A stretch of 64,000 nt of DNA from Eledone cirrhosa (lineage: Eukaryota). The notes beneath the pieces are model-generated. The model saw nothing but the letters and a program-made list of their open reading frames with translations. It was not told where the DNA came from and did not search any database. Each line of letters starts with the position of its first letter. Position 1 is the stretch's first letter. Positions 17,814-46,221 of the stretch are shown one piece after another. The position numbers were made by a program, and so were the translations under genes. The stretch lies in the NCBI GenBank assembly GCA_964016885.1, contig OZ024742.1, positions 46,872,001-46,936,000 of the forward strand, written 5' to 3'.

Positions 17814-20436
17814 TTAAGTTAGCCATGTCAGCTCATTTCTCTCAGCCCGGTTGTTAAGTGGGGGTCTGAGGTTCTTAATAACAAGTGCTTCCTTTATCCT
17901 TAAGGATCCGATGCTGCGTTCAGTCGCTAGGACTGTGACCAAGGGTCTACCCTGTGGGTTTCCGCATTTAAGGATATGTTTACGGAAGGAAGATGCGTTG
18001 GTGTTGATATGTTCCTTGATACGAACATGTAGGGGTCGGATGGTGCTACCTATGTAAAACTTGTTACATTTATCGCATTGAATCTTATATACGACATAGG
18101 TGCGTAGGCAATCTGCCCCCCGTATCGGGCAGTTGCTAAGGGAACACGTCCCATCTGCCTCGTAGGGTTTGTTGGAGAGGCATCTTCGCAGTGAAGGTCC
18201 TGTGTGGGCCAAATGTATGTCAAGTTCCTCCGTCCGTATGGCCCTGCGGATGGCGTTCGTGGTATATTCACTCAGGCGGGGGATTTTAAAGAAGCACCTG
18301 CTAATATTAAGTTTTCTAGTGGGTGTCAGTCTACTGGGTCTGGGGTCTCCAATTCCGTTAATCAGTCGCTTGGGATAACCATTAGATTTGAGTAGATTAC
18401 GGAATTGCGTGGTATGGGTGAGACCACCCATCTGGTCGCTGCATCTGTTAGTGATCCGTGTCAGTTCATTTAGGACATAGCCTCTCTTAGCGTTGTTGGG
18501 GAGGGCTGAGTTATAATGCACAAATAAGTCCTTGCACGCTGCTTTGCGGTAGAAGGTGGTGTTTATGTCTCCTTCTTCCGAGATGTTGATACGGAAGTCG
18601 AGGAGGGCGAGTGACCCGTCTTCTCCTGGGTGTTCGATGGTGAAATCGATGTGCTGGTCAGTATCGTTGAAGATTTGGTGAATTTCATTCGCCATCTCCC
18701 GGGAAGAAGTAAGTATCAGGATATTATCAACGTATCTGGAGTAGAAGGCGACGGCGTTGGGTTGGCAGGTATTGAGTGCCTTGCGTTCCAGGTGGTCCAT
18801 GTACGAGATCGCAAGTATGCCGGACAGACTAGAGCCCATAGGTAGCCCAGAGATTTGTTTGTACGTGTGGCCGAGGAAATTGAAGAGTGCATTATCCACA
18901 ACGAAGGAGAGGAGTTGGTGGATGTCCGTGTGTGTGAGTCCGAAGCAGTGTAAGTTAGATGCTCGGACTCGTTCGGTCAACAGGTCGACAGCTGGGGATG
19001 CTGGTACGGAGGTATAAAGGGCGACCACATCAAGACTGAAGGCATAACCGTTGTCCTTTCTGGTGTTGGGCGCCAGATGGTGTAGTCGCTCCAAGACTTC
19101 GTTTGAGCTGCAGACGTGGGCTGGTAGTGTGTGTAGAATAGGTTTCAGTAGTGTGGAGAGCAGCCACGATATTTTGTAGAGTGGGCCCTCCACGCTAGAG
19201 ACAATGGGCCTGATTTTCAAATCGGGTCCTTGTTTATGTGTTTTGACCAGGTGGTAGAAGGTGGGTAATTTGCTGTTTCGAGTCATTATGTTGTTTTTTA
19301 CCTTCTTTGGCAGTTTTCGTTGGACACAGATGTTAGTCCATATGGTGTTAATGCCTTCCTCGATTAGAGTCGAGGAGGTCCCTGTGACTTTCGAGTAGAG
19401 GCTGTGGTCATTAAGATGTTGGAGAGCTAAGTTGTTGTAGGTCTCTCTCGAGATGACACAGAATTCTTTCCCCTTGTCAGAGGGAAGGTACACAAGGTTC
19501 CTGGATCTTAGGTTGGTGAGAGTATTAAATTGTGCATTGGTGAGGTTGCGTTTATTGTGTGTGTGTGTGTGTTGGGAAAGGATGTTAGAGATAGAATGTT
19601 TCAACCTGAGTAGTTTAGTGTCAAGTTCGTGGTTGGTGGGTGGGGGGTGGAGTGGGTTGTCGAGGTGATACGTGGGGAGTGTGGGGTGGGTTGTGGGGTT
19701 GTAATCGATCTCGGTGTTGTTTTGGATGGCGGTTAGCCATTTCAGTTGATAAGCTGTCCGACAGAAGTTGGTTTCGATGTCGAGTTTCAGTCTATCATCG
19801 AGACGCTGTGTAATGATGAACTCGGGTCCGAGGCGCAGAAGTTCGAGTTCGTCGTTGGTGAGGGTACCGGTTAAGTCGGTAACGAGGTGTGAAGCATCGT
19901 TGGTAGGTAGATCGATGTTGGGGGGTGTAGCGGAGGGTGTTGTATAGCTGTTGCCCCTGGTGTGGTTGTAGTCGGTCCGTCTGTGGGAGCGGATGTTGTC
20001 AATGTAGTATTTGTTTACAGTCCATTCGTATTTCCGTATAAGGCGCTGTTTATCAAATTTGACTCTGGTGTGGTAACACTGATCTATAGCTTTGCGTATA
20101 TCCTGGACTTGGTGGTCAGGGGTGAGGGTTGGAGCTATACGATCTAAGTGCTCAGAAAGCGTTTGTATATGGAGTCGCAGTTGGTGGTGGTTGTGTCGTA
20201 GTATTTTCTTGATAAACGTGCGTTGAATGTGGCGGATGGTGTTTTCGAAGGATGGTGATCGTAAACATTCGGGTAGATGTATATTCCTGATGGTGGTTGG
20301 AATGATGTTGTTCTTTAGGCAGCGTTTTAAGAAGGTAATTTGGCAACCGAGTTTGGCACGATTCTCCGATAGTCTGAATAGGTCCCTTATGGGTGCAAAC
20401 AAGTCCTGGCTCAGGTGTAATGATAAGAGGGACACC

Positions 20437-20441
<5 letters not shown>
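17814..20441 (-). CDS. PLE reverse transcriptase + GIY-YIG endonuclease (~875 aa; catalytic motif reads YVDN)
   Basis: [64 protein letters not shown]. The first 36 aa of the track ORF are microsatellite. Confidence 0.9.
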
Positions 20442-20515
<74 letters not shown>

Positions 20516-21398
20516 GTACATATATATAAATATACACACAGACACGCACACTTGCGTTGGTTCGAGAGGGAGGGTATGTGTTGGTGATGTTAATGAAGTT
20601 AATGATTGTTGATGTATGGAGTTGTACCTTGTGGTGGCGGTGGTGGAGTTGTGAGCGACAAAAATATACAGGTTCGAATAATACGATGGGTTACTCCTGT
20701 AGGCTGTACAACCACAGCAGACACTGCAGTGCCATCAGCAGCTGACACAAAACTTTCCAGGTACAGATCCATGGTCTTTTGCGACTGACAGATACCAATA
20801 TTAATAACAACAACAACAATAATAATAATGATTTTTTCTGATTTAGGCACTAGGCCAACAATGTTTTGGGAAAGGGAAAGTCAATTAAATCGACATTACT
20901 AGTACTTTATTTTATGGATATATAGATGTCTTGTATATTGGATGGAATAATTTACTGATTATTGATTATTTGATCGGTTAATTAGTTAACAACAATTGAC
21001 ACACTTACGAAAGCTTGAATATTAGCTTGGTAATCATCAATTTAATTGTGGTGCTTATCATGTTTTCTTCTAAGCCTGAAACAACTGTTTGTGTACGATG
21101 CTGAACAGGGTATTGCTAATATTAAGGACGTAATGTACTGTTGTTCTAGCAAATTATATACTGTTCATGTTTTCTCTTAGTTGTACCAATAACGATATTT
21201 ATGTGTACCCCCTGCTTCGGATATTTTTAGCGCCTTTGCATTGAGGGTTATAGTTCGGCAAATTGGTGTACAGAAGAAAGCAGTTTGTACACCTGTATTC
21301 TGTTTGTTATGAATACAATATATATATTAATAAAGAGAGAGTGATATATATATATATGTGTGTGTGTATATATATATATTTAATATAGAAATGGCTTC

Positions 21399-22739: not shown

Positions 22740-23399
22740 CAGTGGCGGACTGGCAAGGTCATCATCTTTCCTGATAGCGAATGGGCCCATTTAGTTATTT
22801 GTAGGGCAAAATAGGAAAATAAATATTATTAAAAGTAGTGTCTGACAAATATAGAATAAACGAAGCCAGTATGGAAATATATTATATAGATATTTAATTA
22901 AATCCATAAAGCAGGAAAGACGATAAAGGTTTCAGAGATGAATTCTTAGAATATGGGTATAAAAAAACTGGTAGTTTATTTTGTCAACCCCGGAACGATA
23001 CTAGGGGGACCCGAGCAAAATTTGAAGTGGAGGATCTAATAAATTATGTAATGTGATGCTGAGAGGATATTGCGGTGGTGATGGATTTTCAGTATTTCCG
23101 TTATTAGAAACTAGGCTTATTTACTTTAGCCATTGTATTTCGATTATCTATGAAAAGAATGTTCGCTATATTACGTGCAGTGGCGGTAGAGAAAAGTATA
23201 TATTTTGATTTTCTTCTAGTTACTAAAAGCGATATTGTGAGACTTCGAGAGGATTTCAAGGAAACTGGCTTCCAGTTGCAAAGTAAGGCTAAAATCCAAG
23301 GAGGAAGAAGATGATGTATATGCATATTCGCGTATATTTCTACAATACTCACGAACGTATCTATGAATATATGTGTAGGCATGTCAGTCCGTCTTCCTT

Positions 23400-23400
<1 letters not shown>
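22740..23400. mobile_element. non-coding repeat with hAT-like terminus, ending at (CTAT)n
   Basis: Starts CAGTGGCGGACTGGCA; degenerate inverse TGTCAGTCCGTC near 23382; homologous to 31165-31480. Confidence 0.45.

Positions 23401-23474
<74 letters not shown>
23401..23474. repeat. (CTAT)n microsatellite 5' of Tx1 copy 1
   Basis: Directly visible. Confidence 0.95.
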
Positions 23475-23479
23475 CTCTT

Positions 23480-26400
23480 TCTGTCTGACGTGTGGAACAT
23501 CGCCGGTAAGCTTTTTTGTTAATTTCTATGCAAAAAACCGAACTAATTGTTTGAAAAAACATAACACTTTGTAGATTAACCCCCAAGTTGAATTGACAGC
23601 TGGGTGGTAATCCCATTTTTCGCCCCTGTAGGGGCGAAAATTTTATTTTAAAAATTTGTTTTAAAATATCAGATGTTACAAACTAAATAACTTGAGCAAC
23701 ACAAGAACGCTGGAGAACGTTAATAGAGAAAAGAGAGAGAAAGAGGCAGATATTAACGTTATATCTGCTTCTGCTACTATGGACGTCGCCATAGATACAA
23801 GTGTCAACAAAGAAAAAATATATTAACACTTGAAAATTTTAAAATGTCTACCGTCGAAGCGGAGAAAAATAACAATAACACACAGGAAAACACAGGAATT
23901 AAACCCATTAACATACATACACATGAAAAAGACATCAACAACTCTACAGATACATCTACACAAAGTTTCACCTCAACAAGGAACTGAGATTTCCAACAAC
24001 GATAACAACAACATCAACAGCAACACCACACAAAAAAAGAAAATGCCTTTCGCTGAAACGGTGAACAAAAAACAAGATTTTATAAATCTTGATATCTCCA
24101 ACGCAAGAGATATGCTCCAGCAAAGGAGAAAATTTGTAACTTTCGAAGAAAGAGGTGGGTTTAGAATTAACTCACCCATTGAAATAAAGGAAGACACAAT
24201 CCGTAGATCAGTCACTTTTAGGACTGTGTCAAATTCGACAAGAAAGCCGACATTTGCTAATCAAGCAGATATAGAAGATACTTTCAAGGAAATTCTAGCA
24301 AATGTCGATTTTCTCCAGCGAGGAAAACAGTACGGAAGTGTTGCCGTACTGTTTAAAAGCCAGGCACTCGCCCCAAAAATCTCTGTGACACCAATGGTGT
24401 CAAAAGCATACACCTTTTTCCCTACACACATGGGGAAAAGGACACAAAAAATAAAAATAAAAAACATGCCTCCAAACATTAACATCTGGTGTATCTTGGC
24501 TGGCTTCGTAGAGCCAGAAACTGATATGATACTCTCAATACGAAAATCTATTAGGCAAAGGTGGGCGGGCACAGATTTGGAGATTCTGTTGAAAATGAAA
24601 CCGGAGAGAATCTCAAAAATACCCGAAAGAGTCGTTATTGATAATAACAACAAAATAAACATTTCGGTAGAAGGACAAACATTTCATTGCTTTCGCTGTG
24701 GTAGCACAGCTCACCTAAAAGCCTCTTGTCCACAAACACACAACAACATCATAAAAAAAACTCTATTACCATCACCAAAACAACCACCACCACCACCACA
24801 AGTACAACGACAGACGAAACGAGCAACCACACCAAAACAAACAGACACTCAACCAACAGCAACAGAAAAAAACAGAGACAACACCCCTGAAGAAAACAGC
24901 CCCACTCCATCCCACTCCATCAAACACTACCACAAACACACATACCGAAACACCACCACCACACAACATACCCTTACCCCACACACCTGACGATTATTCA
25001 TCGACGGATGAAGCTGCTTCTCCTTCTTTAAGTGAAGAAGAGGGAGAACCACGGAAATCTAAAAAGCAAAAAAAGAGACACCACAAACCCCCCCAAAACT
25101 CCAATCACCAACACCAACACACAACCACAGACACAAACAACAACACAAACAACACCACAGTCAAACATCCCCCTATCAGCAAAACCAGCACCAACACCAC
25201 CCCAAACACAAGCACCCACCATAAAAAGAAAACTCCTGGACGAACAACAAACTGAAACAACACAACAAAAACGCAAACAACAATACGCATACATCAACAC
25301 AAACAACAAGAGTTTGATGGAGGTCATCTCCCAAAACTCCAAGGTGGAGACGGAGGGCAAAACTTTTGTCAAGGCAGAATCCTCTCCACACCTTAAACTT
25401 ATAAGGGTTTCTATGGAAACCTATAAAGACCTAAAAAATGAATTTTCACAGGACGTGGGCCACAAACCCATCAACCGCGTCCTGTTAAAATGTTTCCCCA
25501 CCCCACCCAACACCCAAATGGAGATTGAATAACCCGATCTCCAGGAAACGAAAAGGTAAGTGCATATTTCGTCCTTTTTCTCCAACTTTTCTTCACCAAC
25601 ATGGCTAGTTTACGAGTTGGAATCGTGAATGTGCGTGGCCTAGGGATGCTCTGGAAACAGGGCCAACTTTTAAACGACCTTAGGTCACACAGTATGGATG
25701 TGATAGCCATCACCGAGTCCAGGATACACAAAAGGCAGCAACTAACCCCCATCTTCGACGACTTTGAGATCTACACATCTCTCTGTCAGCCAGGAGGTGG
25801 AGGTGGAGTGGCTATCATGTTTCGGAAGAACCTGGATGTCGGAGTACAGCAAGTACACTTGGACCCGGAGGGTAGACTGGTAGTCCTAGACGTGAACAGT
25901 ATCGGAGGTGGAGCCTTCAGACTGGTTGCCGTTTATGCCCCGACCGGGCAATCGCAAGCACGGCCAGACTTATTTAAGCGTCTAGAATCTTTTCTGGGAA
26001 CGGCTCGCTCCTTACTTTTAGTGGGGGACTGGAATGGTATGCTAGATGCACGATGGGACTATGTGGGAGCATGTCCCACTAGAGCGGGGTACAACAGCCT
26101 CAAAACTTTAATCGGCCAATTCTAACTGGCCGATAGGTATCGACTGGATTTCCCGACTGCACCACAGTGGACGTGGGCAAACCGCAGTGGGACATCTAGA
26201 TCGTATTTAGATATGTTCTTCATTAGAGAAAGGGACAAGGAGATGTTAAGCTGTCCACGAATGCACATGGTTGCCTATTCAGATCACAAGTTAGTCGTCT
26301 GCTTAGTCAACCGTGATAGAATACATAGACAGGGTCCCGGATACTGGAAGCTGAACGTGTCGTAAACGGCACCTAAAGCTTAAAGTGAACGGATAAGTAG

Positions 26401-26893
26401 ACTAGTCAAATAACAGTTAACGGGAGCCATCGTCAACAATAGATGGTGGTACTCTCTCAAGAAAGCAATTAGAATAGAATCGATAGGGTATAGCAGAGAG
26501 TTAGCCTTAGAGAAAAACAGAATAGAAAGAGAACTAGTAGCCAAGGTAGAGGAGGCACTTAGAAGTGGCAACGCGGCTAGAGTGTTAGCGTCGAGAACGG
26601 CACTGGACCAGTTCTTCGATGCGAAACACGAAGGCTGCGTGGTCAGAAGCAAAACACGTGCTCTAGAAAACGAAGGAGCGAAAGCTGTCAGCTGGGCTCG
26701 AGTGGCGGAGGCAAAAAGTGGCAACAAGTCCACGATTCGGTCTTTGAAAGACCAAAACAGACGCGTGCTACTTGACCCCAAGCAAATGTGCGCGACCTTT
26801 CAGCGACTGTTTGAGCAGAATGACAGTGAGCCGAACGGGGTAATGTACTTTAGTTCATACCTCGACGGCCTGCCGCGTCTCTCGACGCATTAG
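23480..26893 (+). mobile_element. L1-Tx1 non-LTR retrotransposon copy 1 (3'-truncated, decayed)
   Basis: ORF1 with CCHC knuckle CFRCGSTAHLKASC; ORF2 from ATG 25601 with APE endonuclease motifs NVRGL, GDWN, YLD, SDHK and GYWKLN; multiple stops. Confidence 0.9.
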
Positions 26894-27864
26894 CTAATAC
26901 AACATCCTTGGCTGAAACAATTAATAATTATAGAAAAAAGAATATCGATTACAACCTGACCTGGAGTGTGCTCAAAAGGGCCACCCCTTATCAAAATAAC
27001 AGATATGAGTGTCGATTATACTCCCAGGAACTTTTTGAAATAATGAAATCTAAGGATATCCTATTAAATAAGCGACAAGAATTATTTATATCTTGAAATC
27101 ATAGAAATACTTTCAAATATTATAAACCTAATTAATTACACTTATATTTTACATATTATTATAATTAGTTTTTTTAATTTAATTAACCTATAATTAGTAC
27201 TTTACTACAGAGAACTTCATAATTTTATTTCCCTCTTACAGCTCTCTTTTCCTAAAATTAATACCTAAAAGTATACATATAAATTAATTTAATTTCCTGT
27301 TATGAATCTAGATTCCTTGTAGCCTATGTAAGATTGGTATTTCTCACTACTACATTTATCCCAAAATTTTATTTTCCTTCGTTTTTAAAAACATTCTTTA
27401 ATAACATCTAATTCTTATTTATCACATCCATATGCATTAATATAAATTTATCCCTATAAGTATACCTATCAATTAATTTAATTTCTTGTTATAGATCCAA
27501 ATTCCTTGTGTTTTAAATAAGATTGGTATTTCTCACTAACACCTTTACCCTAAAATTTTTATTCTCCTTCGGTTTTAACATTAACATTATTCTTTAATAA
27601 CATCAAATTTTCGTCTACCTTTCACCGCCTTGACCTATTTTCATCCCCAAAGTATTCTTTTCATTCTAAAAATTCTTTCCATTCAAAACTTAAGTCTGCA
27701 TTCCTCTACCCCTAAATTAAATTTCTACTACTACTATTCTATAAACTTGACCTCTTACTACTTTTCTATTGGTCAATTCAAAACCTGTTCCCAAACAGAC
27801 CTATTATATTAAATCTTTGTTGTTTTTTTTTCAATAAACAAATATCATTATTTCTGAAGACAGC

Positions 27865-28046
27865 GGTGGATTGGCAGTATCGGTAGAGAGTTGGACACCA
27901 TGCTTTGAAGCATAGAGTTACGTCCCTTTATGATCTGAGTTCAAATCCCGCCGAGGTTAACTTTGCCTTTCATCCTTACGGGGTCGATAAAATAAAATAC
28001 CAGTAATGTACTGGTTATTGCTGGCCTTCTGCCTAAAATAGAAACA
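27865..28046 (+). mobile_element. SINE with 18-bp target-site duplication
   Basis: Near-identical to 39-227; ATTATTTCTGAAGACAGC at 27847-27864 and 28047-28064. Confidence 0.92.
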
Positions 28047-28181
28047 ATTATTTCTGAAGACAGCATATATACGTGAAGGTATGTACATTTCCTCTTATAG
28101 TTTGTAAAATTTTTACATAGATCTATATGAATGTACATACCAACACACATATATATCCTAGAAACGATTGTAAAATGATGA
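28047..28181 (+). ncRNA. hammerhead H6 with ~100-nt stem II
   Basis: (TC)ATTATTT-CTGAAGA-..GGTATGTACATT..AATGTACATACC..-GAAA-CGATTG-TA-AAATGATGA. Confidence 0.75.
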
Positions 28182-28386
28182 ATTTTTTAATATAAGGAAC
28201 TTGTTCTTTGTTTTTATTCATTGTTTTTACTAATTTATCTTGACTCTGTTTTCCTGTGATTCTCATCGAAAATTTTTTGAATGCATCTTCTCTTTTCACG
28301 ATATTTCGATTACGTTGAGTTCTTCATACGGATTGGACACTACCGTATATTTTGGTGGATTTATCTACATACTATATATATATATA

Positions 28387-29410
28387 GAGAGAGAATTAGT
28401 ACATCTACCAACATATGTGTACAGATGTACACCCATGCTAGCAAATATATAAGTTATGTCTTAGTACCTATGTGGTTCTATGCAGGTGAATGCAGAACAA
28501 TTATATGAAAGACGTAAAATAAGAAAATTAAAAAAAATTAAAAATCAACTTACTTACTAACATTTTCACTCCAACTAATTAGTTTCTGTAATGGGATAAA
28601 TATAGTTACATAATATATATAACTATAGAGAATTAATTACGTCATCAGGGAGTCTATTCTCAGCTAAGTTCCCAGGCAATGCGCGGACACTAGGAACCCA
28701 TATAAAAATAATAATTCAGTAGATGGAATGAAGCTAGCGAGGACTAGATTCCGGAGCACTGAAAAAATTTCACTGCCTCTGGTCAGTGGCAGATTCTAAA
28801 GAATCAATCACGTGACACCGAGGTTAATCAGTTAGGAGCGGGGTGGTATTATGACAAGAGCCTACTACTGCCATGAAACAGCAGTAATTTTGGCAAGTTT
28901 TGCTCAACAAATAATTTGGAGATAAATATAGAGAATTAGTAGTACATCTACCAGCATATGTGTACAGATGTACACTCATGCTAGCAAATATATAAGTTAT
29001 GTCTTAGTACCTATGCGGTTCTATGCAGGTGAATGCAGAACAATTATATGAAAGACGTAAAATAAGAAAATTTAAAAAAATTAAAAATCAACTTACTTAC
29101 TAAAATTTTTACTCCAACTAATTAGTTTCTGTAATGGGATAAATATAGTTACATAATATATATAACTATAGAGAATTCATTACGTCATCAGGGAGTCTAT
29201 TCTCAGCTAAGTTCCCAGGCAATGCGCGGACACTAGGAACCCATATAAAAATAATAATGCAGAATAGAGTCCCTGATGACGTAATGAATTCTCTATAGTT
29301 ATATATATTATGTAACTATATTTATCCCATTACAGAAACTAATTAGTTGGAGTGAACATTTTAGTAAGTAAGTTGATTTTTAATTTTTTTAAATTTTCTT
29401 ATTTTACGTC

Positions 29411-29415
<5 letters not shown>
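28387..29415 (-). mobile_element. ORF-less hammerhead element R2: 543-nt-period partial tandem plus inverted copy
   Basis: ~28390-28715 repeats at ~28930-29258; 29261-29415 is an inverted copy; (TA)n at both ends; no ORF inside the monomer. Confidence 0.88.
28568..28653 (-). ncRNA. hammerhead H7 (also 29111-29196 minus and 29268-29353 plus)
   Basis: ACTCC-CTGATGA-cGTAAT..ATTACa-GAAA-CTAATTAG-TT-GGAGT (GUU cleavage triplet). Confidence 0.8.
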
Positions 29416-29505
<90 letters not shown>

Positions 29506-29506
29506 T

Positions 29507-29559
<53 letters not shown>

Positions 29560-29563
29560 TATA

Positions 29564-31158
29564 AAGTAGCGCTCAAAATAAGAGAACCATAAATTAACTT
29601 TTCATTATCTTTCATATTTAACATTTTTCCTTTGAAAAAATATTTGAAAGAATACTTGTAATATATATATATATCTCTTGTGCTAAAATATTTTCTTAAT
29701 AATAAAGGATATAAACAAGATTTTAATGATATACCTTTAATTAAAAAAGAATACAATGATGAAAATAAGAGAACTCTCTGGTGATGTTTTATATATTAGT
29801 GTAATTACTTGGATTTTTTAGAAATATCTGGCAAGACTTGTCAACAGGGTCATGTTACGAGTATATTCAATTTTTCAACTCTCGTAAGATGTCGATCCAT
29901 TCCAAGGTAAAGGAAGCCCACTGATGTAAAGTCGTTCAGATGAAGAGTTTGGACTCCTTCTCTCTCGGCCATTAGAAGTGAAGTGAGCCATTCTAAAAGT
30001 GTGATAACGAGGATTTTGAAATTGCATAATGAAACCAACTCATTCACGTCTACGAAGAAGGCTAGCCGTCCACGTAAAACAAGTCAACGAGTGGACCTCA
30101 TGATCCAAAGAATCGATATGGGGAACGCTTCGACACTGCATCTGGAATATCTCGTCAAATCAGCGCTAATTTCGGATGAAAAGTGTCTCGGTGTAGTGTC
30201 TCGTCGTCTGGCAGCCATTGGATTGATCAAAGCTCTTATCAGCAATAAAAATAAAATTGCTAGACTTGCCTTCGCTGACAAGCACATTGTGTCAAGTGAG
30301 AGAAACTGGTCCAAAGTTCATTTTAGTGATAATATCAAGTTTAATTTGATTGGTTCAGATGGTAACCAATACGTAAGAATTGAAGCTGGGAAATACTTCT
30401 TTCAAAGTGTCAAAAAGTCTGTAAAATTTGGAGGAGGTAGTGTCATGATTTGGGGAATGTCCCAGCAGCCGCAGTGGGACCTCTCATATGCTTAAATGGT
30501 ACTGTAATGCTAATGTGTACTAGAAACTCCTTCAGCAACATGCCATTCCCTCTTTACGGGCTTCTCCCAATAAACCAGCCATTTTTATGCAAGATAATGT
30601 GCCACACTGCAAAACGAATGAGAGAATTTCTCAAAGATCAGAAAATAGAAGTTTGGAAATGGTCAGCCCGGAGTTCTGATTTGAATCGAATCAAGAACCT
30701 TTGGAAGATCATTGGGGACAAAATCATGGTGAAAAGGCCAGCTACAACCACTGAATTATGGAAGAAACTGGAGGAAGAGTGGGATAAAATCACTCCAAAA
30801 CTGTGCAATATGATGGTCACTTCATGTGGATGCAGATGTGCTGAAGTCATCTAAAGTAAGGGACTCTACACTTCCAGTTAATGCCTGAGAATGCATAAAC
30901 ACTAGTTTGTAGAGTAAATTTCATCTTTAATTGTGCTTTCGTAAAGATTATGCTTCTCTTCTCTTATTTTGATCACTGTATTTTTTCAAAATTAAAGGTA
31001 TTTGATTAATATCTTCTGTATACCTTTGATTATTGAGAAAATATTTTAGCGCATGACATATATGTACTAGAATATTCTTTCAAACTTTAAAGGAAAAATT
31101 TTGTCAAATAAGAAAAATGATGAACTAATTTATCGTTCTCATATTTTGATAGCTACTG
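29564..31158 (+). mobile_element. Tc1-family DNA transposon (IR/DR-type, decayed)
   Basis: TA-(A)AGTAGC.CTCAAAATAAGAGAAC / GTTCTCATATTTTGATAGCTACTG-TA; ~220 bp TIRs with inner direct repeats; transposase WSKVHFSD, VKFGGGSVMIWG, SSDLNRIKNLW. Confidence 0.92.
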
Positions 31159-31164
31159 TACATA

Positions 31165-31480
31165 AATAGTTGTCTCTAGGGAAAAATATGAAAATAAATA
31201 ATATTAAAAGTCGTGTCTGACAAATGATATAATAAACGAAGCCGGTATGGAAGGATATTATGTAGATATGTGGTAGAGGTACGTAACAATTTCGATTTTC
31301 TTCTAGTTACTAAAAGTGATGTTGTCAGATTTCGAGACGTTTTCAAGGAAGCTGGCTTCCAGCTGTAAAGTCAGGCTAAAATGCAGGTGGGAAGGAGATC
31401 ATGTATATGTATATTCATTTATATTTGTATAACACTCACGAGCTGATCTAGGAATCCCTGTGTAGGTATGTCAGTCTCTT
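31165..31480. repeat. second copy of the repeat at 22790-23400, again ending at a CT/(CTAT)n tract
   Basis: Shared blocks GTGTCTGACAAAT..AAACGAAGCC.GTATGGAA and TTTTCTTCTAGTTACTAAAAG..CTGGCTTCCAG.TG.AAAGT.AGGCTAAAAT. Confidence 0.8.
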
Positions 31481-31505
31481 TCTTTCTCTCTTTCTCTCTC
31501 TCTCT

Positions 31506-31621
<116 letters not shown>

Positions 31622-34600
31622 TGGGATGGACACACGCGTGTAACTTGCTGAGTAAGTTTTGCTTAAATTTCTATAGAAATTCTTGACTGTAAACTTTAAT
31701 TTTTGTACCATTTTGTAGAGGGACTGCCAGGTCAAACTTTGATCTGGTCAGTCTCTCAAAATATTCTACGCCTTTAGGCGAAATAGTTACCAAAAGTTTT
31801 TTTGAAAAGTTAACATTTTTTGTAAAATGGCTGAAGCTTCTTCACCAAAATTCGAAGAAGGAAAGGGTAAGATAAGCTTACAGCTACCCCCTGCCACTGT
31901 CACAGTAGCAGAGGTCAAAAACAAAGGTCAGCCAGAGGAAGGATTTTCTCCACCTGCTGACAAACAACTTGACGTTGCCATGCCAACAAACCAAAGAACC
32001 AGCGCCACCAGCAACAACAACAACAACAACAATGCTACGGACGAAAACAACACCAATAACAATAACAACAACAACAAGACCAATAACTGTGATAACAACA
32101 ACAATGATAACAACAACACCGCCAACTACAACAGCAACACAAACAAGGAAAAGTCTCCTTCGCCCAGACGGCAAGGAAAACCCTCGACTATCTGCCAGTA
32201 GATATAACCAAAGCGAAGGAGCTAAACTAAAAGGCCAGAGACTCCTAAACACTGTCATGTTTAGGACAATCTCAAATAAAAGGAAAAAGCCAGCTCAACC
32301 ATCACAGAGTGAGATAGAGCTGGTTTTAAAAGACGTCATGAAAGACATCACATTCATTCAGAAGGATAGACTCTACGGGAGTCTATCCATTCTCATGAAG
32401 GACAGGGACACAGCAGTGAAACTGTCCATCAAACCAATTACATCCACCGCATACATTTTCTACCCTACGTACATGGGTAGGACACAAAAAATAAAAATCC
32501 ACACCATCCTGCTGATTATGGACATATGATGGGTTTTGACAGGTTTCCTGAACCTGGACGTTGACACGCTGGTGTCCATGGGAAATGCATCGGGTGACGC
32601 GTTCAGTGGAACGAGCCTCGAACTTGTAGTTCAAATGAGGCCCGAAAGGATCGCCCAGATCCCTGAACGCGTCATACTGGATGATCAAACTTTCATCAAC
32701 ATTACCGTTGAGGGTAGGCGGCCCTCGGGTTACCTCTGTGGAACCAGAGGTCACCTGAGAGCTGTCTCTCCCCAACTTAATAAGAAAACCCCAATCCTGC
32801 CTACACCACCAACAACTGCACAACCAACACAATCACCACAACTACCACTACAAAAACAACAACCACAGCTCAAACCAAAACAAAACAATGTCCAACCCAT
32901 CCCCCCACTAAAAAAAAAAACAATTTCCAAAACACCCGCACCGCAACAAAACCCGAAAATATACCCCTCTCCTCCACCGCGGAAGATGACCCTAGTTCGT
33001 CGTCAGACGAGGAGGAGCACTTCCACACAATTAAAAGAAAAAAAAGAAAACACACCTCAGACACACAAATGAAAGCAACCCTCCCCAAAATATAACACTG
33101 ACACCAACACAAAGAGCACACAACAACAGCATACAAAAAACACCACACACAAACAAAAACATGCATACACATACATAAACACAAGAAACAAAAAACTGTT
33201 AAACATTGTGTACAACAACAATTTAATAAAAACCCAAGGGCTTAACTTCACCCAGGCAGGGGATTTCCCCCACCTCAAAATGATTAAGGCCCCAGAGGAC
33301 ACTTATAAAACTCTAAAAGACAACTTTAAAGAGGATGTGCCCCCCCCCCCCCCCCCTGCGTCGGGCCCATTAACCGCGTCCTCCTAAAAAACTACCCCAC
33401 CCACTCCCCAAACACCCACACAACTCCAAACACCCCAACCACACAACACACTGATGCCGCTACACTTCCACAAACCACCACCCCACCCAACAACCAATCC
33501 CCCACCCTCATGGAAATTGTGCAGCCCGATACCCGGGACGCAGAGAGGTAAGTGTCTTTTCTCTTCACCACCAACATGGCTATGCTAAGAGTAGGCTGTC
33601 TAAATGCGCGTGGCCTGGGCTCAACTTGGAAGCAAGCAATGCTTCTAAATGACCTCAGGTCACAACGTATAGATGTGATGGTTATTTGCGAGGCTGAGAT
33701 GCACGCATCTCTCTGTCAGCCCGGAGGTGGGGGTGGGGTGGTCGTTCTGCTGCAAAAACATCTGGGTCTCGCAACACAGACGGTATATTTGGACCCGGAG
33801 GGTCGACTAGTGGTTCTGGACCTTGGCAGTGGTGAAGACGGAGCGTTTTGGTTGGTGGCCGCCTACGGACCTTTCGGGTCACCGCGGCCGGACTTCTTCC
33901 ATCGTCTGGAGACTTTTTTAGGGACGTCCCGCTCCTTGCTATTAGTGGGGGACTGGAATGGTATCCTAGATGCACGCTGGGACTACGTAGGGGCCTATCC
34001 CGATAGACAGGGGTGTAGTAGACTCAAAGGGTTAATCGGTCGATTTGACCTGTCCGATAGATATCGACTAGATTTTCCGACTGCGCCAACCTGGACTTAG
34101 GCAAATCTTAGCGGATCATTTAGGTCGTACCTAGATAGGTTCTTAGTTAGAAATAAGGATAAGGACTTTTTAAGTTGTTCAAAAATAAGCATGGTTGGCT
34201 ATTCAGACCACAAGTTAGTGAGCTGCATGGTCAACCTTGACAGAACGCATAGACAGGGAGCCGGTTACTGGAAGCTCAACTTCTCCTTACCGGCAAGTAA
34301 GGCTTACAGGGACCGGATTAGCACTTTAGTTAAGGAGCGGTTGACGGGCGCCATCGTCAACAGCAGGTGGTGGGGATCTCTCAAAAGAGAGATTAGAGTA
34401 GTCTCTATAGAATTTAGTAGGGAGTTAGCCTCAAATAGAAATAGGAAGGAAAGGGAGCTGGTAGATAGTGTAGAAGAGGCAATTAGAAGCGGCGACGTGA
34501 CCAGAGTGCTAGCGTCGAGAACGGCTCTGGGCCAGTTCTTCGACGCGAAACACGAAGGTTGCATCGTCCGAAGCAAAATACGTGCTCTGGGAAATGAGGG

Positions 34601-36795
34601 GACCAAAGCTGTTAGCTGGGCCCGCGTGACAGAAGCCAAAAGAGGGAGCAGATCCACTATCCGGTCTTTGCGAGACCAGGATGGACGGGTGATCCTTGAA
34701 CCTAAGCAGATGTGCGAGGCGTTTCAAAAGCACTTTGCCGGATTGTTCGGAAGGGGCGGGAAGCCGGTTGGGGATGTGGACTTCGCTCCATACCTCGACA
34801 GCCTGCCGCGTCTCTCGGACATGGAGGCGAAGTCCTGCGACGAGCCGATTTCAGCCGCTGAGATAGAGGAGGTGCTGAGCCAATGCGGCAAACGCAAATC
34901 CCCAGGTCTCGATGGTCTTCCATACGAACTGTATCTAGCTATGCCGGACTTGTTCCCCGATCTCCTCGAGGCGGTCTACTGCAACTGGCAACAGAACAGG
35001 AGAATTCCCTGTGCTGTGACCAAGGGCGTAGTCACGCTAGTGAGGAAGGACGAGAACAAGGGGGACGATATAAATAATTTCAGGCCCATAACTCTGCTAA
35101 ATACAGAGTTACAGATTTTGGCCAAGGTGCTAGCATAGAGGTTGGCGCTTGTCGTGGGCAACCTGGTGGGAGATGCGCAGACATGTGCTATTCCGTCCAG
35201 GTCCATCCACGACAACCTCCACCTCATGCGATACATCATAGAGAGGGTTGGGAACGAACCCGGCTTTGGTGGGGCCCTGATGAACTTGGATCAATCTAAG
35301 GCGTTCGATAGGGTCGACCATGGTTACCTGGATCTGGTGCTAGCGGCGGCAGGCTTCGGACCCGTTTTCAGGGGCTGGATCAATGCCATGCACAGCAGCC
35401 GCATCTGCTCTAGGGTCAAGGTGAATGGCTACCTCTCGGAGCCGTTCGAAATCGCGCGGTCCATCCGACAAGGCTGCTTTCTCTCCTCCCTTCTGTATGT
35501 AATGACTCTAGAGCCACTGCTGCGGAAGTTGGAGTTGTTGCAGGGCATCCCGTTGGAACCGGGATTGCGGAAAGCGGTATCGGCCTACGCCGACGACGTA
35601 ACAGTAATGGTGTCGACGGCCTCGGAAATCGGGGCGATCGGCACTTTACTGGAGGAGTACGAAAGGTTTACAGGGGCTAAGCTGAACCGGGACAAGTCGA
35701 TCGGTCTGCAACTCGGCACGTGGAGGAGCAGATCGATGCCCTCCGATGACGTCGTCGGGCGCTGGACGGAGGGCCCGGTGAACTTGCTCGGGGTCTGGTT
35801 CGGACCAGACCTCCAGGTGGAGCAGAACAGGGGTGAGGTAACAAACAGGGTGTTTGCACAGACCCAGAAGTGGGCCGAGTGCAAACTGTCCCTGAAAGGT
35901 CGGGCGGAGGTGACGAACACTTATATAGCGTCCGTCATCTACTACCGCCTGACCGTTGTGCCTTGCCCAAGGGAAACGCTCGCCAAAATGGAGCGCGCAC
36001 TCTTCCAATCCTTTGGAAGAAGCGGGCTCCTATGGTCCATCTGCTGTCAACACCCTTCGAAAGGAGGGCTAGGGATGCTGTGGCTAATGATACGTAAACA
36101 CGCATTAAGGCTACGAAACCTCCAGGTATTCCGCACCGGTCAACCGGTGTGGGCCCCGTTTGTGAGGCGAGTCTTTCCCAGACTCGTCTCACTCACCGAG
36201 CTGCAATCCTGGGTCAAGCAAAGACCGAGAAAACTGGGCGCCTGGCACACCGAGTCTATTGTAACGATCAAGCCACCCCCCTTTTCAAAAACGAAGGAGA
36301 GGCGGTGTTTCTGTGCGTAATAGCCATGGCGAAAGAGGTTGTATGGTGGACGCGTCTGAAAGGACTGAGGTCAGACACCTTTCTCTCTGGCCAATAACTG
36401 GTCCGTTTCTTCCGATATCATTTCGGAAGAAGGATCAGGATGGAGAGAGAGGTGCTGCACCCCAGCCGTTTTTATGAAAGATGGGTGAAAGTGGCGAGAA
36501 TGGCCCGTATGAATGGGCATTCACTCTACATCAGACTATAGGTGAGGAAGATGAAAGACCAAGCGAGCACCCCCTCTCTGTGCTCCTGAGGAGAAGGGTT
36601 GCACACTTTTTTTCGGGGGTGTGTGCGACCCCCCAAGGCGCCTCCCCCCTATTGAGGATTTTGTTTTATTTTATTTTATTTTTATACTTTTATATCTTGT
36701 TATTGCCTCCTCCATATTGAGGACGCCTTTGCATGTAAACTCCCCCTTTGTACTTGTCTCACTTTTGATGCTCTGGTGGCAAATAAAAAGAAAGT
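31622..36795 (+). mobile_element. L1-Tx1 copy 2 (both ends present, frameshifted, internal deletions)
   Basis: ORF1 from 31827; ORF2 ATG 33576 with APE, KSPGLDG, FRPITLLN, LDQSKAFDRV, RQGC.LS, AYADD; AATAAA then (CTAT)n. Confidence 0.93.
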
Positions 36796-37022
36796 TATCT
36801 ATCTATCTATCTATCTATCTTGATAGAGTAAGACACGCTTCACATCGGCTCCGCTATTCCATCGGGATTTACCTTTACTATTGTAAGTACCGGATAAATT
36901 TTTCAGTGCAACACATTTGGAACACTAACCCCTGTTATTTAGGGAAACATTTTTGCATTTACCCCCTTTTTAGGGGGTAAAATAAATATCTAATTTTGCC
37001 GAAAAATTTCGTTCTTGGCAGC

Positions 37023-38810
37023 ATGGCGGAAAAGATGGCAGACATGTCTGCCATTAGCTCTGCCACGCCCCCCAAGTCTGAAGAACAAAAAATAATTACA
37101 ACAAAATTAGACAACGAAACAAACAAAGAAAATGAAAAAACAAATGTTAAGGAAAATGAGCAAACGGAAAACAAACAAACAGAAAATAATACAAATAACA
37201 ACAGGGCAACTTTCGCCCAGAAAACAAAACAATCCATTACATACACACCTATTGACCTAACGGCCGCCAGAGAAAAACTGGCCGAAGCAAAGAAACACAT
37301 TGTTTTGGGGGAAAACGGAATGTTTTCCATTAACTCCCCCCCAGAATTCAAGAAAGCGAGAACAGAGAACACAGTTCTCTTCAGAACAATCCTAAACCAA
37401 ACAAGAAAGCCAGCACAGCCCAGCCAAATGGAGATAGAGTTGGTACTAAAAGACTATATGAAGAATATTCTCTTCATACGAAAGGACCGACTCTATGGCA
37501 GCATTTCGGTCCTAACAAAAGACAAGGAAACGGCGGAGAAGCTTTCCATAAGCCCACTCTCATCGACAACATACAGCTTCTATCCCTCCTACATGGGTAG
37601 AAGAACACAGAGAGTAAAAATACAAACAATGCTGCCCACAGTGGACTTCTGGTGGGCTATTGCTGGCTTCATAGACATGGGCGAGGACACAGTGCTGTCA
37701 ATGGGGAAGGCATCCGGAGATGCGTTCCTGGGAATGGGCCTCGACCTACTAGTCCAAATGAGGCCCGAAAGAATAGCACAAATCCCGGATCGCATCTGGC
37801 TGGATGAGCTCACCCCAATAGATATAATTGTAGAGGGGAGAAGACCAGCATGCTATTTATGCACGGAAAGGGGACACATTAAGGCTAACTGCCCGAAACG
37901 TATCCCCCAAAAAGGACTATTGCCCACACCCATCACAAACAGTACACCAACACCACCCACCTCCAAAAATACACTAATACCACACACAGCAAACAAAATA
38001 CAAACACCACCAAGCACAACACAAACATCACCACCACCAGCACCAACACAAACACCACCACCACCATTACCAACCACAAGCACGACACAAACAGCACCAC
38101 CACCACCACAAAACGCATTCCAAACAAATAATAAAAAAAACAGCAACAAATCTACCCCTCCCGCAAAAAAACAACAACCAGACACGACGTCCCTCCCACC
38201 TAGCGCTGAAGAGTTTCCCCCAACTTCTGAAGAAGAAGGAGGAGAAGCCTTCAGACAAGTTAAAAGAAAAAAAAGAAAGCACACACCCAGCACACCACAA
38301 ATAACCCACACACAAACACCAACTCCAATAAAAAACACCCCACCCTCAACAAACAAAAATAAATCTGCGCCTCCCCTCTCCGAAACATTGACAGCATCAC
38401 AAAAAAAGACATTGCAATACACATATATAAATAAAGAAAACAAAAAACTGTTTAAATTAATAAACAATAGCCCTTTGGTGCAAACCGAAGGGCCAAACTT
38501 TATCTCAACAGAGAACTTCACCCATTTAAAAATGATAAAGGTCCCTCTGGACCTTTATCGTTCCTTAAAAGAACAATTTAGACAGGACGTGAGCCCCCCC
38601 TGTTTAAAACCGTTAAATCGCGTCCTCTTGAAAGATTTCCCCATAACCTCCCCTCTACCTGACACAACTCCAAACACCCCAACCCCACCACACTTGGGCA
38701 CCCCCACACCACCACAAAACATCCCTCCACCCAACACACCTGACGCCATAGAAATTACACAGCCCGGAGAGGTAGGTGCTTTTCTTTCTTCACTTTCAAC
38801 ACCAAAATAG
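37023..38810 (+). CDS. Tx1 ORF1 protein (gag-like, CCHC zinc knuckle, Pro/Thr-rich linker), ~595 aa
   Basis: CYLCTERGHIKANC; homologous to ORF1 of copies 1 and 2; uninterrupted frame. Confidence 0.8.
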   Translation: MAEKMADMSAISSATPPKSEEQKIITTKLDNETNKENEKTNVKENEQTENKQTENNTNNNRATFAQKTKQSITYTPIDLTAAREKLAEAKKHIVLGENGMFSINSPPEFKKARTENTVLFRTILNQTRKPAQPSQMEIELVLKDYMKNILFIRKDRLYGSISVLTKDKETAEKLSISPLSSTTYSFYPSYMGRRTQRVKIQTMLPTVDFWWAIAGFIDMGEDTVLSMGKASGDAFLGMGLDLLVQMRPERIAQIPDRIWLDELTPIDIIVEGRRPACYLCTERGHIKANCPKRIPQKGLLPTPITNSTPTPPTSKNTLIPHTANKIQTPPSTTQTSPPPAPTQTPPPPLPTTSTTQTAPPPPQNAFQTNNKKNSNKSTPPAKKQQPDTTSLPPSAEEFPPTSEEEGGEAFRQVKRKKRKHTPSTPQITHTQTPTPIKNTPPSTNKNKSAPPLSETLTASQKKTLQYTYINKENKKLFKLINNSPLVQTEGPNFISTENFTHLKMIKVPLDLYRSLKEQFRQDVSPPCLKPLNRVLLKDFPITSPLPDTTPNTPTPPHLGTPTPPQNIPPPNTPDAIEITQPGEVGAFLSSLSTPK

Positions 38811-41800
38811 ATCAATTGAGAGTTGGCTGTTTGAACGCGCGTGGCCTGGGCTCAGCTTGAAAGCAAGCAAAGCTACTAAGTGACCTCAGGTCACGAAGTA
38901 TAGATGTGATGGTTGTTTGCGAGAGTCGGATCAGCAGCGTGCGACAGCTGGCTCCCGCCTTCGATGACTTTGAGATGCACGCATCTCTCTGTCAACCCGG
39001 AGGCGGGGGGGGGGGGAGTTGCTGTACTGTTGGATAAACGTCTGGCTCTCGACGTACAGATTGTTCACTCGGACCCGGGGGGTCGATTACTGGTGCTGGA
39101 CGTCGGAGGCGGTGAAGGCGAGTCTTTCAGACTGGTCGGTCTTTATGCCCCCTTCGGGGCTGAAAGAGCCGACTTCTTCCAGCGACTGGAGACTTTTCTA
39201 GGAACGTCGCGTTCCCTGCTTTTAGAGGGGGACTGGAATGGAATCCTGGATGCGCGTTGGGACTATGCAGGGGCATGTCCCGATAGAGGGGAGTGTAGCA
39301 GCCTCAAGGGGTTACTCGATCGATTCGACCTGGTCGATAGATTTCGACTAGATTGTCCAACTGCGCCAACCTGGACCTGGGCAAACCGCAGTGGACAATC
39401 TAGATCGTACCTAGATAGGTTTTTGGTTAGGAGTAAGGATACTTAGTTGTCCAGAATTGATCATGGTTGGCTATTCAGATCACAAATTAGTGACCTGCGT
39501 GGTCAACCTTGATAGAACGCATAGACAGGGTCCCGGTTACTGGAAGATGAACTTGTCCTTGCCGGCAAAGAAAAAGATTATAGGAACCGGATTAGTAGCT
39601 TAGTTAAGATGCGGTTGACGGGAGCGATCGTCAACAGTAGGTGGTGGGTATCTCTAAAGAGAGAGATTAGAGTAAGTTCGATAGGTTACAGGACCTAGCG
39701 GCGAATAGAAATAGGAAGGAAAGGGAGTTAACAGATAAACTAGAAGAGGCGATTAGGAGCGGAGACGTAGCCAGAGTGTTAGCGGCGAGAACGGCGTTGA
39801 GCCAGTTCTTTGACGCGAAGCACGAAGGCTGCGTTGTCCGAAGTAAAATACGTGCTTTAGGAAACGAGGGGACCAAAGCTGTTAACTGGGCCCGCGTGAC
39901 AGAAGCCAAGAGTGGGATTAAATCCACCATTCGGTCTTTGCGAGACCAGGATGGACGGGTGATCCTTGAACCTGAGCGGATGTGCGAGGCCTTTCAAAGG
40001 CACTTTGCTCGACTGTTCGGAGGGGGTGGGGGGGCCGGACGGGGATGTGGACGTCGGTCCATACCTCGACGGTCTACCGCGTCTTTCGAGCGGCGAAGCG
40101 GAGTGCTGCGAAAGGCCAATCACAGCCACTGAAATCGGGGAAGCGCTCAGCCAATGCAGCAGACGCAAATCTCCGGGTCTCGATGGTCTACCATACGAAC
40201 TTTATTTAGCTATGCCGGTCTTGTTCTCCGAAATCCTCGAGGCTGTCTATTGCAACTGGCAACAGAACGGGAGAATTCCCTGTTCTGTGACCAAGGGCGT
40301 GGTCACGCTAGTGAGGAAGGACGAGAGCAAGGGGGACGACTTAAGTAACTTTAGGCCCATAACTCTGCTGAATGCAGAGTTTCAGATTTTGGCCAATGTG
40401 TTGGCGAAGAGGTTGGCGCTTGTGGTGGGTGGTTTGGTGGGAGACGCGCAGACATGCGCTATCCCGTCCAGGTCCATTCACGACAACCTCCACCTCATGC
40501 GATACATCATAGAGAGGGTTGGCAACGAACCCGGCTTTGGTGGGGCCCTGATCAACTTGGATCAATCTAAGGCGTTCGATAGGGTCGACCATGGTTACCT
40601 GGATGCGGTGCTAGCGGCGGCGGGCTTCGGACCCGTTTGCAAGGGCTGGATTTCTGCCATGCACAGTGGCAACATCTACTCTAGGATTAAAGTAAACGGC
40701 TACCTCTCGGAGCCGTTTCAAATCACCCGGTCCATCAGACAGGGGTGACCCTCTCCTCCCTTCTGTACGTATTGACTCTCGAGCCACTGCTGCGGAAGTT
40801 GGAGTTGCTGCGGGGCATACCCCTGGAACCGGGATTGCACAAAGCGGTCTCGGCCTATGCCGACGACGTAACAGTAATGGTGGCGGACGCCTCGGAAATC
40901 GGGGCGATCGCCACCCTACTGGAGGAATACGAAAGGCTGACGGGGGCTAGGCTGAACCGGGACAAGTCAGTCGGTTTGCAACTCGGAACGTGGAGGGGCA
41001 AACCGATGCCGTTAGACGGTGTCGTCGGGCGGTGGACGGAGGGCCCGGTGAAGCTGCTCGGGGTCTGGTTCGGACGGACCTCCAGGTGGAGAAGAATTGG
41101 GGCGAGGTGACGAGCAGGGTGTTTGCGCTGACCCAGAAGTGGGCCAAGTGCAAACTATCACTGAAAGGTCGGGCGGAGGTGACGAACGCTTACATAGCGT
41201 CCGTCATCTGCTACCGCCTGACCGTCGTGCCTTGCCCCAAGGAAAAGATCACCATCATGGAACGCATGCTCTTCCAGTTCCTCTGGAAGAAGCGGCCTCC
41301 CATGGTGAGGAGATCCATCTGCTGCCAGCACCCTTCGAAAGGAGGGCTGGGTATGCCGTGGCTGTTGATGCGTAGGCACGCAATGAGGCTACGGCATCTA
41401 CAGGTATTCCTCACCGGTCAGCCGGTGTGGGCCCCGTTTCTGAGGCGAGCCTTCCCACAGCTCGTCTCGCTCACCGAGCTGCAATCCTGGGTGAAGCAAA
41501 GACCGAGAAAACTGGGCAACTGGCACACCGAGTGTGCCCAGGCACTCACGGCTATCTGGCAAGCGGACCCGACTGTCAGTGGAGAATCCACCTCGACATT
41601 CTATAGAGGGCTGGTGGCTAGCAGGGGCGACGACACCCTTGGAGAGTCGCTAGGCATGGAGGAGGACGAACTGGCCAGCCTGTTCGGTAGAACTTTCGGC
41701 CCGGGACCCATGGACAACTTCCAGAGGTCCCTAGCCTGGCAGTGTTACCGGGGGGCTCTGCCCGTTCGAGAAAAGCTCTACAGACACGGGCGCCCGGGCA

Positions 41801-42237
41801 GGGATCCAGCGAAAAAGATCTGTCCCAGATGCGTGCGCGACGAGGAAACCGTTGCGCATGCACTGGTACACTGCCCGGGCGTTGCCGATCTGTGGGGCTA
41901 CGTCGAACGACTGCTGTCGCGTGTGGCGCCGATTCGATTAACCGCCGAGTCTGTGGTGAACATCAAGCCGCCGCCTCCCTTCAGAAAGGAAGCAGAGGCG
42001 GTCTTTCTGTGCGTAATAGCCATGATGAAAGAGGTTGTGTGGTGGACGCGCCTGAAAGGTCTGAGGTCGGGTGACTTTCTCTCCGGCCATCACCTGGTTT
42101 ACTTCTTCCGATACCACTTCGGAAGAAGGATCAGGATGGAGAGAGAAGTGCTTGGCCCCAGACAGTTTTATGAAAGGTGGGTGAAAGAAGCGAGAATGGC
42201 TCGTGTAAATGAGCCTTCTCTCTACATTGTTCTGTAG
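38808..42237 (+). pseudogene. Tx1 ORF2 (APE endonuclease, RT, Zn finger), disrupted
   Basis: Start mutated to ATA; several stops and frameshifts; motifs GDWN, SYLDRF, AYADD. Confidence 0.88.
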
Positions 42238-42466
42238 GTGAAGAAGTGAAGAGGAAAGGGGGAGCGCCTCCTCTCTGGGCTTCCCCCGCGAAAAGGGTTG
42301 CACACTTTTCGGGGGTATGTGCAATCCCGAACACGCCCCTCCCTTTTGAGGACTTTTTATTATTATATTATTATTGTTATTCCTTTTTCTTTACTCGATT
42401 TATGTAAACTCCCCCACTGTGTATTTGTCCCCTTCTTTTGTGCCCTCGTGGCAAATAAATAGAAAT

Positions 42467-42467
42467 G

Positions 42468-42530
<63 letters not shown>
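42467..42530. repeat. (CTAT)n microsatellite 3' of Tx1 copy 3 (shorter tract at 36796-36819 separates copies 2 and 3)
   Basis: Directly visible. Confidence 0.95.

Positions 42531-43401: not shown

Positions 43402-43439
<38 letters not shown>

Positions 43440-43448
<9 letters not shown>

Positions 43449-46143: not shown

Positions 46144-46213
<70 letters not shown>

Positions 46214-46221
<8 letters not shown>

Follow-up and report, generated by a model that had tools for sequence, protein, structure and literature searches.

The excess of ORF1 protein (ORF1p) over ORF2 protein (ORF2p; ORF, open reading frame) in long interspersed nuclear elements (LINEs) is usually attributed to translation. 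LINEs are generally regarded as intronless, their RNA being the template. Tamura is said to have described splice sites in zebrafish L2 in 2007. Here we analyze three LINE copies, apparently of Tx1 type, in a repeat-filled stretch of 64,000 nt from Eledone cirrhosa (contig OZ024742.1, positions 46,872,001 to 46,936,000; hereafter the window). The copies are designated c1, c2 and c3 and all lie on the same (+) strand. Each carries a predicted intron in its 5' untranslated region (UTR), or leader, with the acceptor inside a predicted hairpin. Further splice-like sites lie at the boundaries of ORF2, where the RNA is predicted to form a long-range duplex (the clamp).

The Penelope element of Drosophila virilis has a 75-bp intron 46 bp past its start; genomic copies retain it, and relatives of 67% identity share it (PMC2377424; statements on this and the other cited papers refer to the accessible parts of their text). 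Chlamys-3_cRei has a 5' UTR intron too (bioRxiv 10.1101/2021.04.23.441226). The leader introns predicted here are similar: short, located tens of bases past the 5' end, and kept in genomic copies and diverged relatives. However, Penelope-like elements have a GIY-YIG endonuclease, one ORF and pseudo-long terminal repeats (pseudo-LTRs), whereas these LINEs have an APE endonuclease and two ORFs. Neither a masking hairpin nor a second intron is mentioned for Penelope or Chlamys-3_cRei in the accessible text; both are predicted here. Splicing is proven in Penelope, while in these LINEs it is predicted from sequence.

In Drosophila copia, splicing removes all of the POL region (a result cited in PMC5580714). 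Like the gag-only RNA of copia and the shGAG RNA of Arabidopsis Ty1/Copia (PMC5580714), the second intron predicted here would remove the polymerase region, place a stop at or just past the junction and leave an mRNA for the structural protein only. Those are LTR elements with a single gag-pol frame, whereas here a two-ORF LINE has its sites on two stop codons and a predicted duplex of 39–44 bp. The resemblance to Penelope lies in the leader intron only and that to copia in the expression strategy only; these LINEs are members of neither family.

Splice sites also occur in the 5' UTR of human L1, where the spliced products (SpIREs) make up about 2% of full-length L1s and are dead ends (PMC5860796). 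There, splicing is a detrimental by-product and varies from one subfamily to another, whereas the sites described here look conserved and lie at ORF boundaries. Kibi and Koshi are microsatellite-targeting LINEs of the Tx1 clade (PMC4494074). They share with our copies the Tx1-type architecture and microsatellite insertion, but their targets are (TC)n or (TTC)n rather than (TATC)n, the cephalopod host is a further difference, and the accessible text on them mentions no intron. The introns of TART are antisense (PMC1636488). In Octopus vulgaris, 13 L1-Tx1 families have been active recently; introns are never mentioned in the accessible main text of that study (PMC13282606).

Predicted leader introns and their acceptor hairpins

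The initial annotation had proposed an intron in each leader, running from GTAAG to a pyrimidine tract with TAG/G (the slash marks the splice boundary), and had placed the acceptor in an inverted repeat. The positions, motifs and lengths (126, 126 and 91 nt) are exact in all three copies (Table 1). The donors match U1 at 6–7 of 9 positions, the tracts contain 10–12 pyrimidines in 14, and the GT-AG layout is present in all three leaders, which supports the proposed splicing. Very few sites score as high as the leader acceptors: two of 105 YAGs in c1 and two of 157 in c3, with the acceptor itself counted. The CACTAAC branch-like motif is found as described, in c3 only; its candidate branch A is at 36929, and CTAAC lies 45 nt upstream of the AG. 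In c1 and c2, TTGAC/TTGAT stands 35 nt before the acceptor AG. The intervening AGs lie inside hairpins. Alternative CAG acceptors at 37021 (c3) and 23672 (c1) abut the likely ORF1 ATG.

The leaders had been described as otherwise unalignable, which would make the c1 and c2 introns independent. This description holds for c3, whose alignment scores with c1 and c2 are reached by 111 and 587 of 1000 shuffles. It fails for c1 and c2, whose intron interiors (117 nt) share 72 matches at a score reached by none of 1000 shuffles. These two introns are homologous, and their shared length is one event, not two.

Chance occurrence of the layout was estimated from 5000 dinucleotide shuffles per UTR, in a test designed after the pattern was seen. 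GTAAG within the first 70 nt occurs in 3.0–6.6% of shuffles per copy. The further presence of a pyrimidine-rich YAG 60–160 nt downstream reduces this to 0.6–1.9%, and placement of the AG in a hairpin of at least 4 bp to 0–0.02%; the copies share ancestry, and these per-copy frequencies cannot be multiplied.

Folding predicts a hairpin around the acceptor in all three copies. It is more stable than all 200 shuffles in c1 (z = −4.4) and c3 (z = −3.2), and 13 of 200 shuffles are equally stable in c2 (z = −1.95). Wider leader regions give z values of −4.6, −5.4 and −1.9 for c1, c2 and c3. In each copy the pyrimidine tract is predicted to pair with the G of the acceptor AG or with the bases just 3' of it. 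Read directly, two double-sided changes distinguish the stem of c1 (TTTTCGCCCC/GGGGCGAAAA) from that of c3 (TTTACCCCC/GGGGGTAAA), and the stem core of c2 is two pairs shorter on both sides; this covariation comes from two or three decayed copies, and MAFFT misplaces the loop. Removal of the intron changes the predicted folding energy of the leader from −50, −53 and −46 to −9, −8 and −19 kcal/mol (c1, c2 and c3), the spliced leaders being also shorter. We estimate that the leader intron is probably spliced.

Splice-like sites at both ends of ORF2

Structure-regulated retention of the leader intron had been proposed to separate mRNA from genomic RNA. The splice anatomy, the hairpin and the Penelope precedent support a retained leader intron. 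This intron alone, however, cannot usefully make the separation, because both ORFs would be present in either form. Most likely, a second predicted intron, which spans ORF2, accounts for the separation.

A donor is seen at or near the ORF1 end in all three copies (Table 1), with 7–8 of 9 U1 matches. It is the top U1 consensus match among the 145 sense GTs of c1 and the 251 of c2, and the joint top of 258 in c3. It forms a conserved block amid a gappy alignment of elements that are about 70–80% alike. The ORF1 stop TAA is contained in the donor of c1 and c2, whereas the TAG in the c3 donor is not the ORF1 stop. At the other end, the ORF2 stop is part of YAG/GTGA in both complete copies (36541 and 42237). 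When the sites are joined in silico, the ORF1 end of c2 stays the same (DAER, then stop), with TGA replacing TAA; in c3 the stop comes 3 codons past the junction. Among the ORF1 relatives, P0004, P0006 and P0010 are the only full-length close ones, and two of these three end in EGKS (P0006, Argonauta) and QGK (P0010). These ends are weakly compatible with AG/GTAAGT in another phase, as seen from the protein ends and not from codons. Other ORF1 matches (P0020/P0021 and P0030/69/74/75/130/131), which are not among the full-length close ones, end differently.

A predicted clamp around ORF2

The start of the 3' UTR is the top duplex partner of the ORF1-ORF2 spacer in the whole element (994 and 1087 windows). 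For the c3 spacer the best partner gives −52.5, versus −31.5 for the next. The duplex is predicted to contain 39 pairs in c2 and 44 pairs in c3, with the donor and acceptor sites 3.0–3.5 kb apart, and 35 and 44 pairs remain when the full span (3.1–3.6 kb) is folded. It spans the ORF1 end, the donor, the ORF2 start and the acceptor, and the acceptor G is predicted to be paired in both introns. The c3 donor keeps the T of its GT as an unpaired bulge, and this T is not part of any ORF1 stop. The 5' arm of c3 is 14 nt shorter and its 3' arm carries the matching form, which looks like a subfamily feature rather than decay. The c3 arm also favours its own partner (−64) over that of c2 (−43). The clamp is very probably a selected structure.

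In c2 an internal loop of the clamp places the ORF1 stop TAA (33549–33551) opposite ACCC (36569–36572). The A-C mismatches are ADAR-like and ORF2 is in frame. This arrangement is not present in c1 or c3.

Table 1. Positions of LINE features in the window (clamp arms as predicted)
Feature	Copy	Position	Strand	Details
(TATC)n tract	c1	23402–23473	+	5' end; likely target
LINE copy	c1	23474–26885	+	Tx1-type; decayed, 3'-truncated within ORF2
Predicted 5' UTR intron	c1	23506–23631	+	126 nt; CCG/GTAAGC..TGTAG/GGGC
Acceptor hairpin	c1	23617–23640	+	10 bp; A in loop, G paired
Second donor	c1	25553–25561	+	AAG/GTAAGT; last codon and TAA stop of ORF1; GT at 25556
(TATC)n tract	c2	31507–31610	+	5' end
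LINE copy	c2	31611–36795	+	Full span; stops interrupt both ORFs
Predicted 5' UTR intron	c2	31652–31777	+	126 nt; TGA/GTAAGT..TTTAG/GCGA; homologous to that of c1
Acceptor hairpin	c2	31769–31780	+	4 bp; longer hairpin upstream (~31718–31757)
Clamp 5' arm	c2	33532–33579	+	ORF1 end, donor 33548, spacer, ORF2 ATG 33576
Predicted ORF2-spanning intron	c2	33548–36541	+	2994 nt; GAG/GTAAGT..CTATAG/GTGA
Clamp 3' arm	c2	36536–36591	+	ORF2 stop and acceptor, 3' UTR start
AATAAA	c2	36782–36787	+	Immediately 5' of the 3' end
(TATC)6	c2/c3	36796–36819	+	Separates c2 and c3
LINE copy	c3	36820–42467	+	Full span; ORF1 open (37023–38810), ORF2 broken
Predicted 5' UTR intron	c3	36883–36973	+	91 nt; ATT/GTAAGT..TTTAG/GGGG; CTAAC at 36925
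Acceptor hairpin	c3	36958–36981	+	10 bp
Clamp 5' arm	c3	38761–38811	+	Donor GAG/GTAGGT at 38772
Predicted ORF2-spanning intron	c3	38772–42237	+	3466 nt; GAG/GTAGGT..TTGTTCTGTAG/GTGA
Clamp 3' arm	c3	42231–42281	+	
AATAAA	c3	42454–42459	+	Immediately 5' of the 3' end
(TATC)n tract	c3	42468–42527	+	3' end

Proposed mechanism and points against it

We tentatively favour a Tx1-type LINE organized as a three-exon unit: a short leader, ORF1, and a 3' UTR with AATAAA. Splicing would remove the leader intron (91–126 nt) and the entire ORF2, giving an ORF1-only mRNA as in copia. This fully spliced RNA, in which the stop lies in the last exon, would yield large amounts of ORF1p. Predicted pairing over the splice sites would damp splicing, and part of the RNA would stay unspliced, serving as ORF2p message and as retrotransposition template. 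The purpose may be to supply ORF1p in excess of ORF2p, as in copia, and copies that lose the leader intron would be dead ends. With still more reserve, the system can be pictured as a retrovirus-like two-RNA programme. Here ORF2 would be a spliceosomal intron bounded by two stops, and the duplex of about 40 bp together with the leader hairpin would gate splicing, set the ORF1p:ORF2p ratio and choose the RNA that is retrotransposed.

Several observations weigh against this explanation. A spliced junction has been observed for neither intron, splicing being predicted from the sequence, and the evidence comes from three copies only, all decayed. In the leader, the c2 hairpin has only 4 bp, and a C-G-closed hairpin of a T/C run looks acceptor-like partly for free. 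An upstream ATG within the intron is not conserved (one of three copies), and alternative acceptors exist at 23574, 31718, 23672 and 37021. At ORF2, the identical-protein outcome is limited to c2: the c3 donor is in another phase and c1 has no 3' end. The ORF2 acceptors are moderate to weak: pyrimidines fill 10 of 14 tract positions in c3, a score reached by 10 of 157 YAGs, and 8 of 14 in c2, a score reached by 42 of 145. Neither has a clear branch motif. The c2 5' arm shows no preference between the c3 3' arm (−49.7) and its own (−49.1). The c3 duplex level is reached by 59 of 5000 short-arm shuffles, compared with 1 of 5000 for c2. The clamp alone could account for the conservation of GGTGA and AGAGG.

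Alternative explanations

An unlikely alternative keeps the leader intron and drops the second one. The leader would be spliced Penelope-style to aid export and translation. The clamp would act in translation or cis-preference by covering both stops and the context of the ORF2 start, and U1 would land on the ORF1-end donor without its use in splicing. The leader acceptors are indeed among the best of the element and the ORF2 acceptor is weaker, the clamp extends to the ORF2 ATG, and in Penelope, reporter output was abolished when the intron was lost, with RNA level unchanged (PMC2377424). But this explanation leaves as coincidence the best donor and a YAG/G-then-stop placed exactly at both ORF2 boundaries.

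It is rather unlikely that the leader hairpins and the clamp are real, acting in translation or ribonucleoprotein assembly, while the splice-like motifs are coincidences inherited from one ancestor. Shared ancestry means that every motif may be a single event. An alternative constraint (stop codon or pairing) is possible for every base of the ORF1-end donor, and the two strands of the window together contain 81 GTAAG motifs. Coincidence would nevertheless have to place four sites in the right order at four functional boundaries, and to keep the leader donor and acceptor of c3 though its intron is not alignable. By simple arithmetic (4^-5), a perfect context around a given TAA arises about once in 1000.

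Quite improbably, no productive splicing occurs. Both donors would instead bind U1 and prevent premature polyadenylation in the A-rich ORF1; the AGs would be by-products of C-G-closed hairpins. In Arabidopsis EVD, U1 represses a premature poly(A) site (PMC5580714). Sense AATAAA motifs are clustered in ORF1 (4, 3 and 5 in c1–c3) with none in the ORF2 of c2 and c3, and the acceptors are predicted to be almost fully paired. However, U1 protection acts mainly downstream of its site, and the strongest donor sits 3' of the AATAAA cluster. The same loop position of the YAG in three different stems is also left unexplained.

Readthrough into ORF2 after A-to-I editing of an ORF1 stop presented by the clamp to ADAR, on the model of the ADAR-edited hepatitis delta amber/W site and in a coleoid cephalopod lineage known for heavy RNA editing, fits the c2 loop, where TAA faces ACCC and ORF2 follows in frame after 24 nt, but is extremely improbable: UAA needs two edits, the c1 gap is 41 nt and out of frame, and the c3 TAG is not the ORF1 stop.

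Searches for junctions and related elements

DNA contigs from three runs of one sample, which may be the source of the window itself, were aligned on 31600–37300 and are present in all 30 bins, including those of the leader introns. No contig joint at 31651 to 31778, 36882 to 36974 or 33547 to 36542 is present among the 15 of 305 joints listed, and contigs drop rare variants. One contig, with a depth of about 3000, spans the c3 leader starting near 36955; fewer than 31 of its letters fall on the intron side, and it is therefore not counted as bridging the acceptor. The high-depth contig differs from the window at 36993 and 37011, and the G to T change at 37011 lengthens the c3 tract of the acceptor at 37021.

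A metagenome scan gave 37 distant LINE loci of 19–41% identity. ORF ends are listed for 28 of them, and eight with readable ORF ends were tested (plus L015). None of the eight has the clamp or the donor/acceptor pair, a further point against the three-exon explanation. The two-intron and clamp design appears lineage-limited because these eight loci show neither. Related DNA was not found in viral contigs, where all 120 pattern matches lack a tblastn or blastn match, nor in the prokaryote genomes searched. Protein searches gave, in turn, 0 matches, 2 for ORF2 and 124 for ORF1, with 3 more from another subgroup. A LINE with an ORF2-spanning intron or a clamp was not found in the literature, as judged by titles and the beginnings of abstracts, with Repbase reports and subscription journals outside the scope.

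Other candidates were rejected. For a 5' self-cleaving ribozyme (hepatitis delta virus-like or hammerhead), the 7 Rfam matches in 22000–44000 (E up to 5) include no ribozyme or credible family, undescribed classes being beyond reach of this search. The LINE copies lack the combination of a GIY-YIG endonuclease and a single ORF, which rejects a Penelope-like identity; terminal repeats are absent and no integrase match was found, which rejects a Ty1/Copia identity. Neither conserved stop readthrough nor a canonical −1 slippery heptamer (by eye) was seen, and the ORF frames differ between copies.

Architecture of the LINE copies and other elements in the window

Architecture and target preference point to Tx1-type LINEs. 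In the window, a TATC tract adjoins all three LINE 5' ends and both intact 3' ends. Pfam profile searches of ORF2 give the endonuclease Exo_endo_phos at 37.2 bits in c1 and 24.2 in c3 (cut-off 24.5), the reverse transcriptase RVT_1 at 41.3 and 64.1 bits (cut-off 29.6), and the C-terminal zinc-binding domain zf-RVT at 27.1 bits, just under its cut-off of 27.5. In ORF1, zf-CCHC scores 17.3 bits, under the cut-off of 20.8, and a CCHC motif is discernible in the alignment with octopod relatives. The DNA identity of ORF2 is about 80% between c2 and c3 and 70–74% for c1. Among the 10 best ORF1 relatives looked up, six are named, all octopod (Octopus sinensis, O. vulgaris, O. bimaculoides and Argonauta hians) with 25–34% identity, which points to a cephalopod host.

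The same repeat, 83% alike, lies upstream of c1 (23185–23486) and c2 (31272–31571). The two copies, of different subfamilies, both appear to have inserted in the TATC tract of one repeat family. Both complete copies have a 3' UTR hairpin, read by eye, at 36596–36632 in c2 (GGGTTGCACAC...GTGTGCGACCC) and 42296–42330 in c3 (...ATGTGCAATCC). It is likely the recognition stem for ORF2p.

A 958-codon open frame at 17814–20690 (−), with reverse transcriptase and weak GIY-YIG matches, is a Penelope-like element. Penelope-like copies, assigned by eye, also occupy 43404–50011 in tandem and inverted arrangement, 96–98% alike; 44562–46235 has no Pfam match. Long near-perfect inverted repeats lie at 6182–7760 (97%), 4485–5103 (86%) and 12126–14074 (94%), and by eye both arms of the first contain coding sequence for a GIY-YIG-like fragment. 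A fragment at 29944–30495 resembles Tc1-like transposase by eye, with no Pfam match at E 0.01. Just 3' of c3, at about 42560–42700, is a fragment of a CR1-like reverse transcriptase tail (by eye).

Implications

Precedents are known for the separate parts (the Penelope 5' UTR intron, the copia gag-only RNA and the L1 SpIREs), and none was found for a Tx1-type LINE in the accessible text of the literature searched, Repbase reports being outside its scope. If the proposed mechanism is true, a LINE that reaches ORF1p excess by structure-controlled removal of ORF2 would converge on the solution of copia. It would also be a compact, testable example of a retroelement shielding its unspliced RNA, and it would predict a route to ORF1-only non-autonomous elements.

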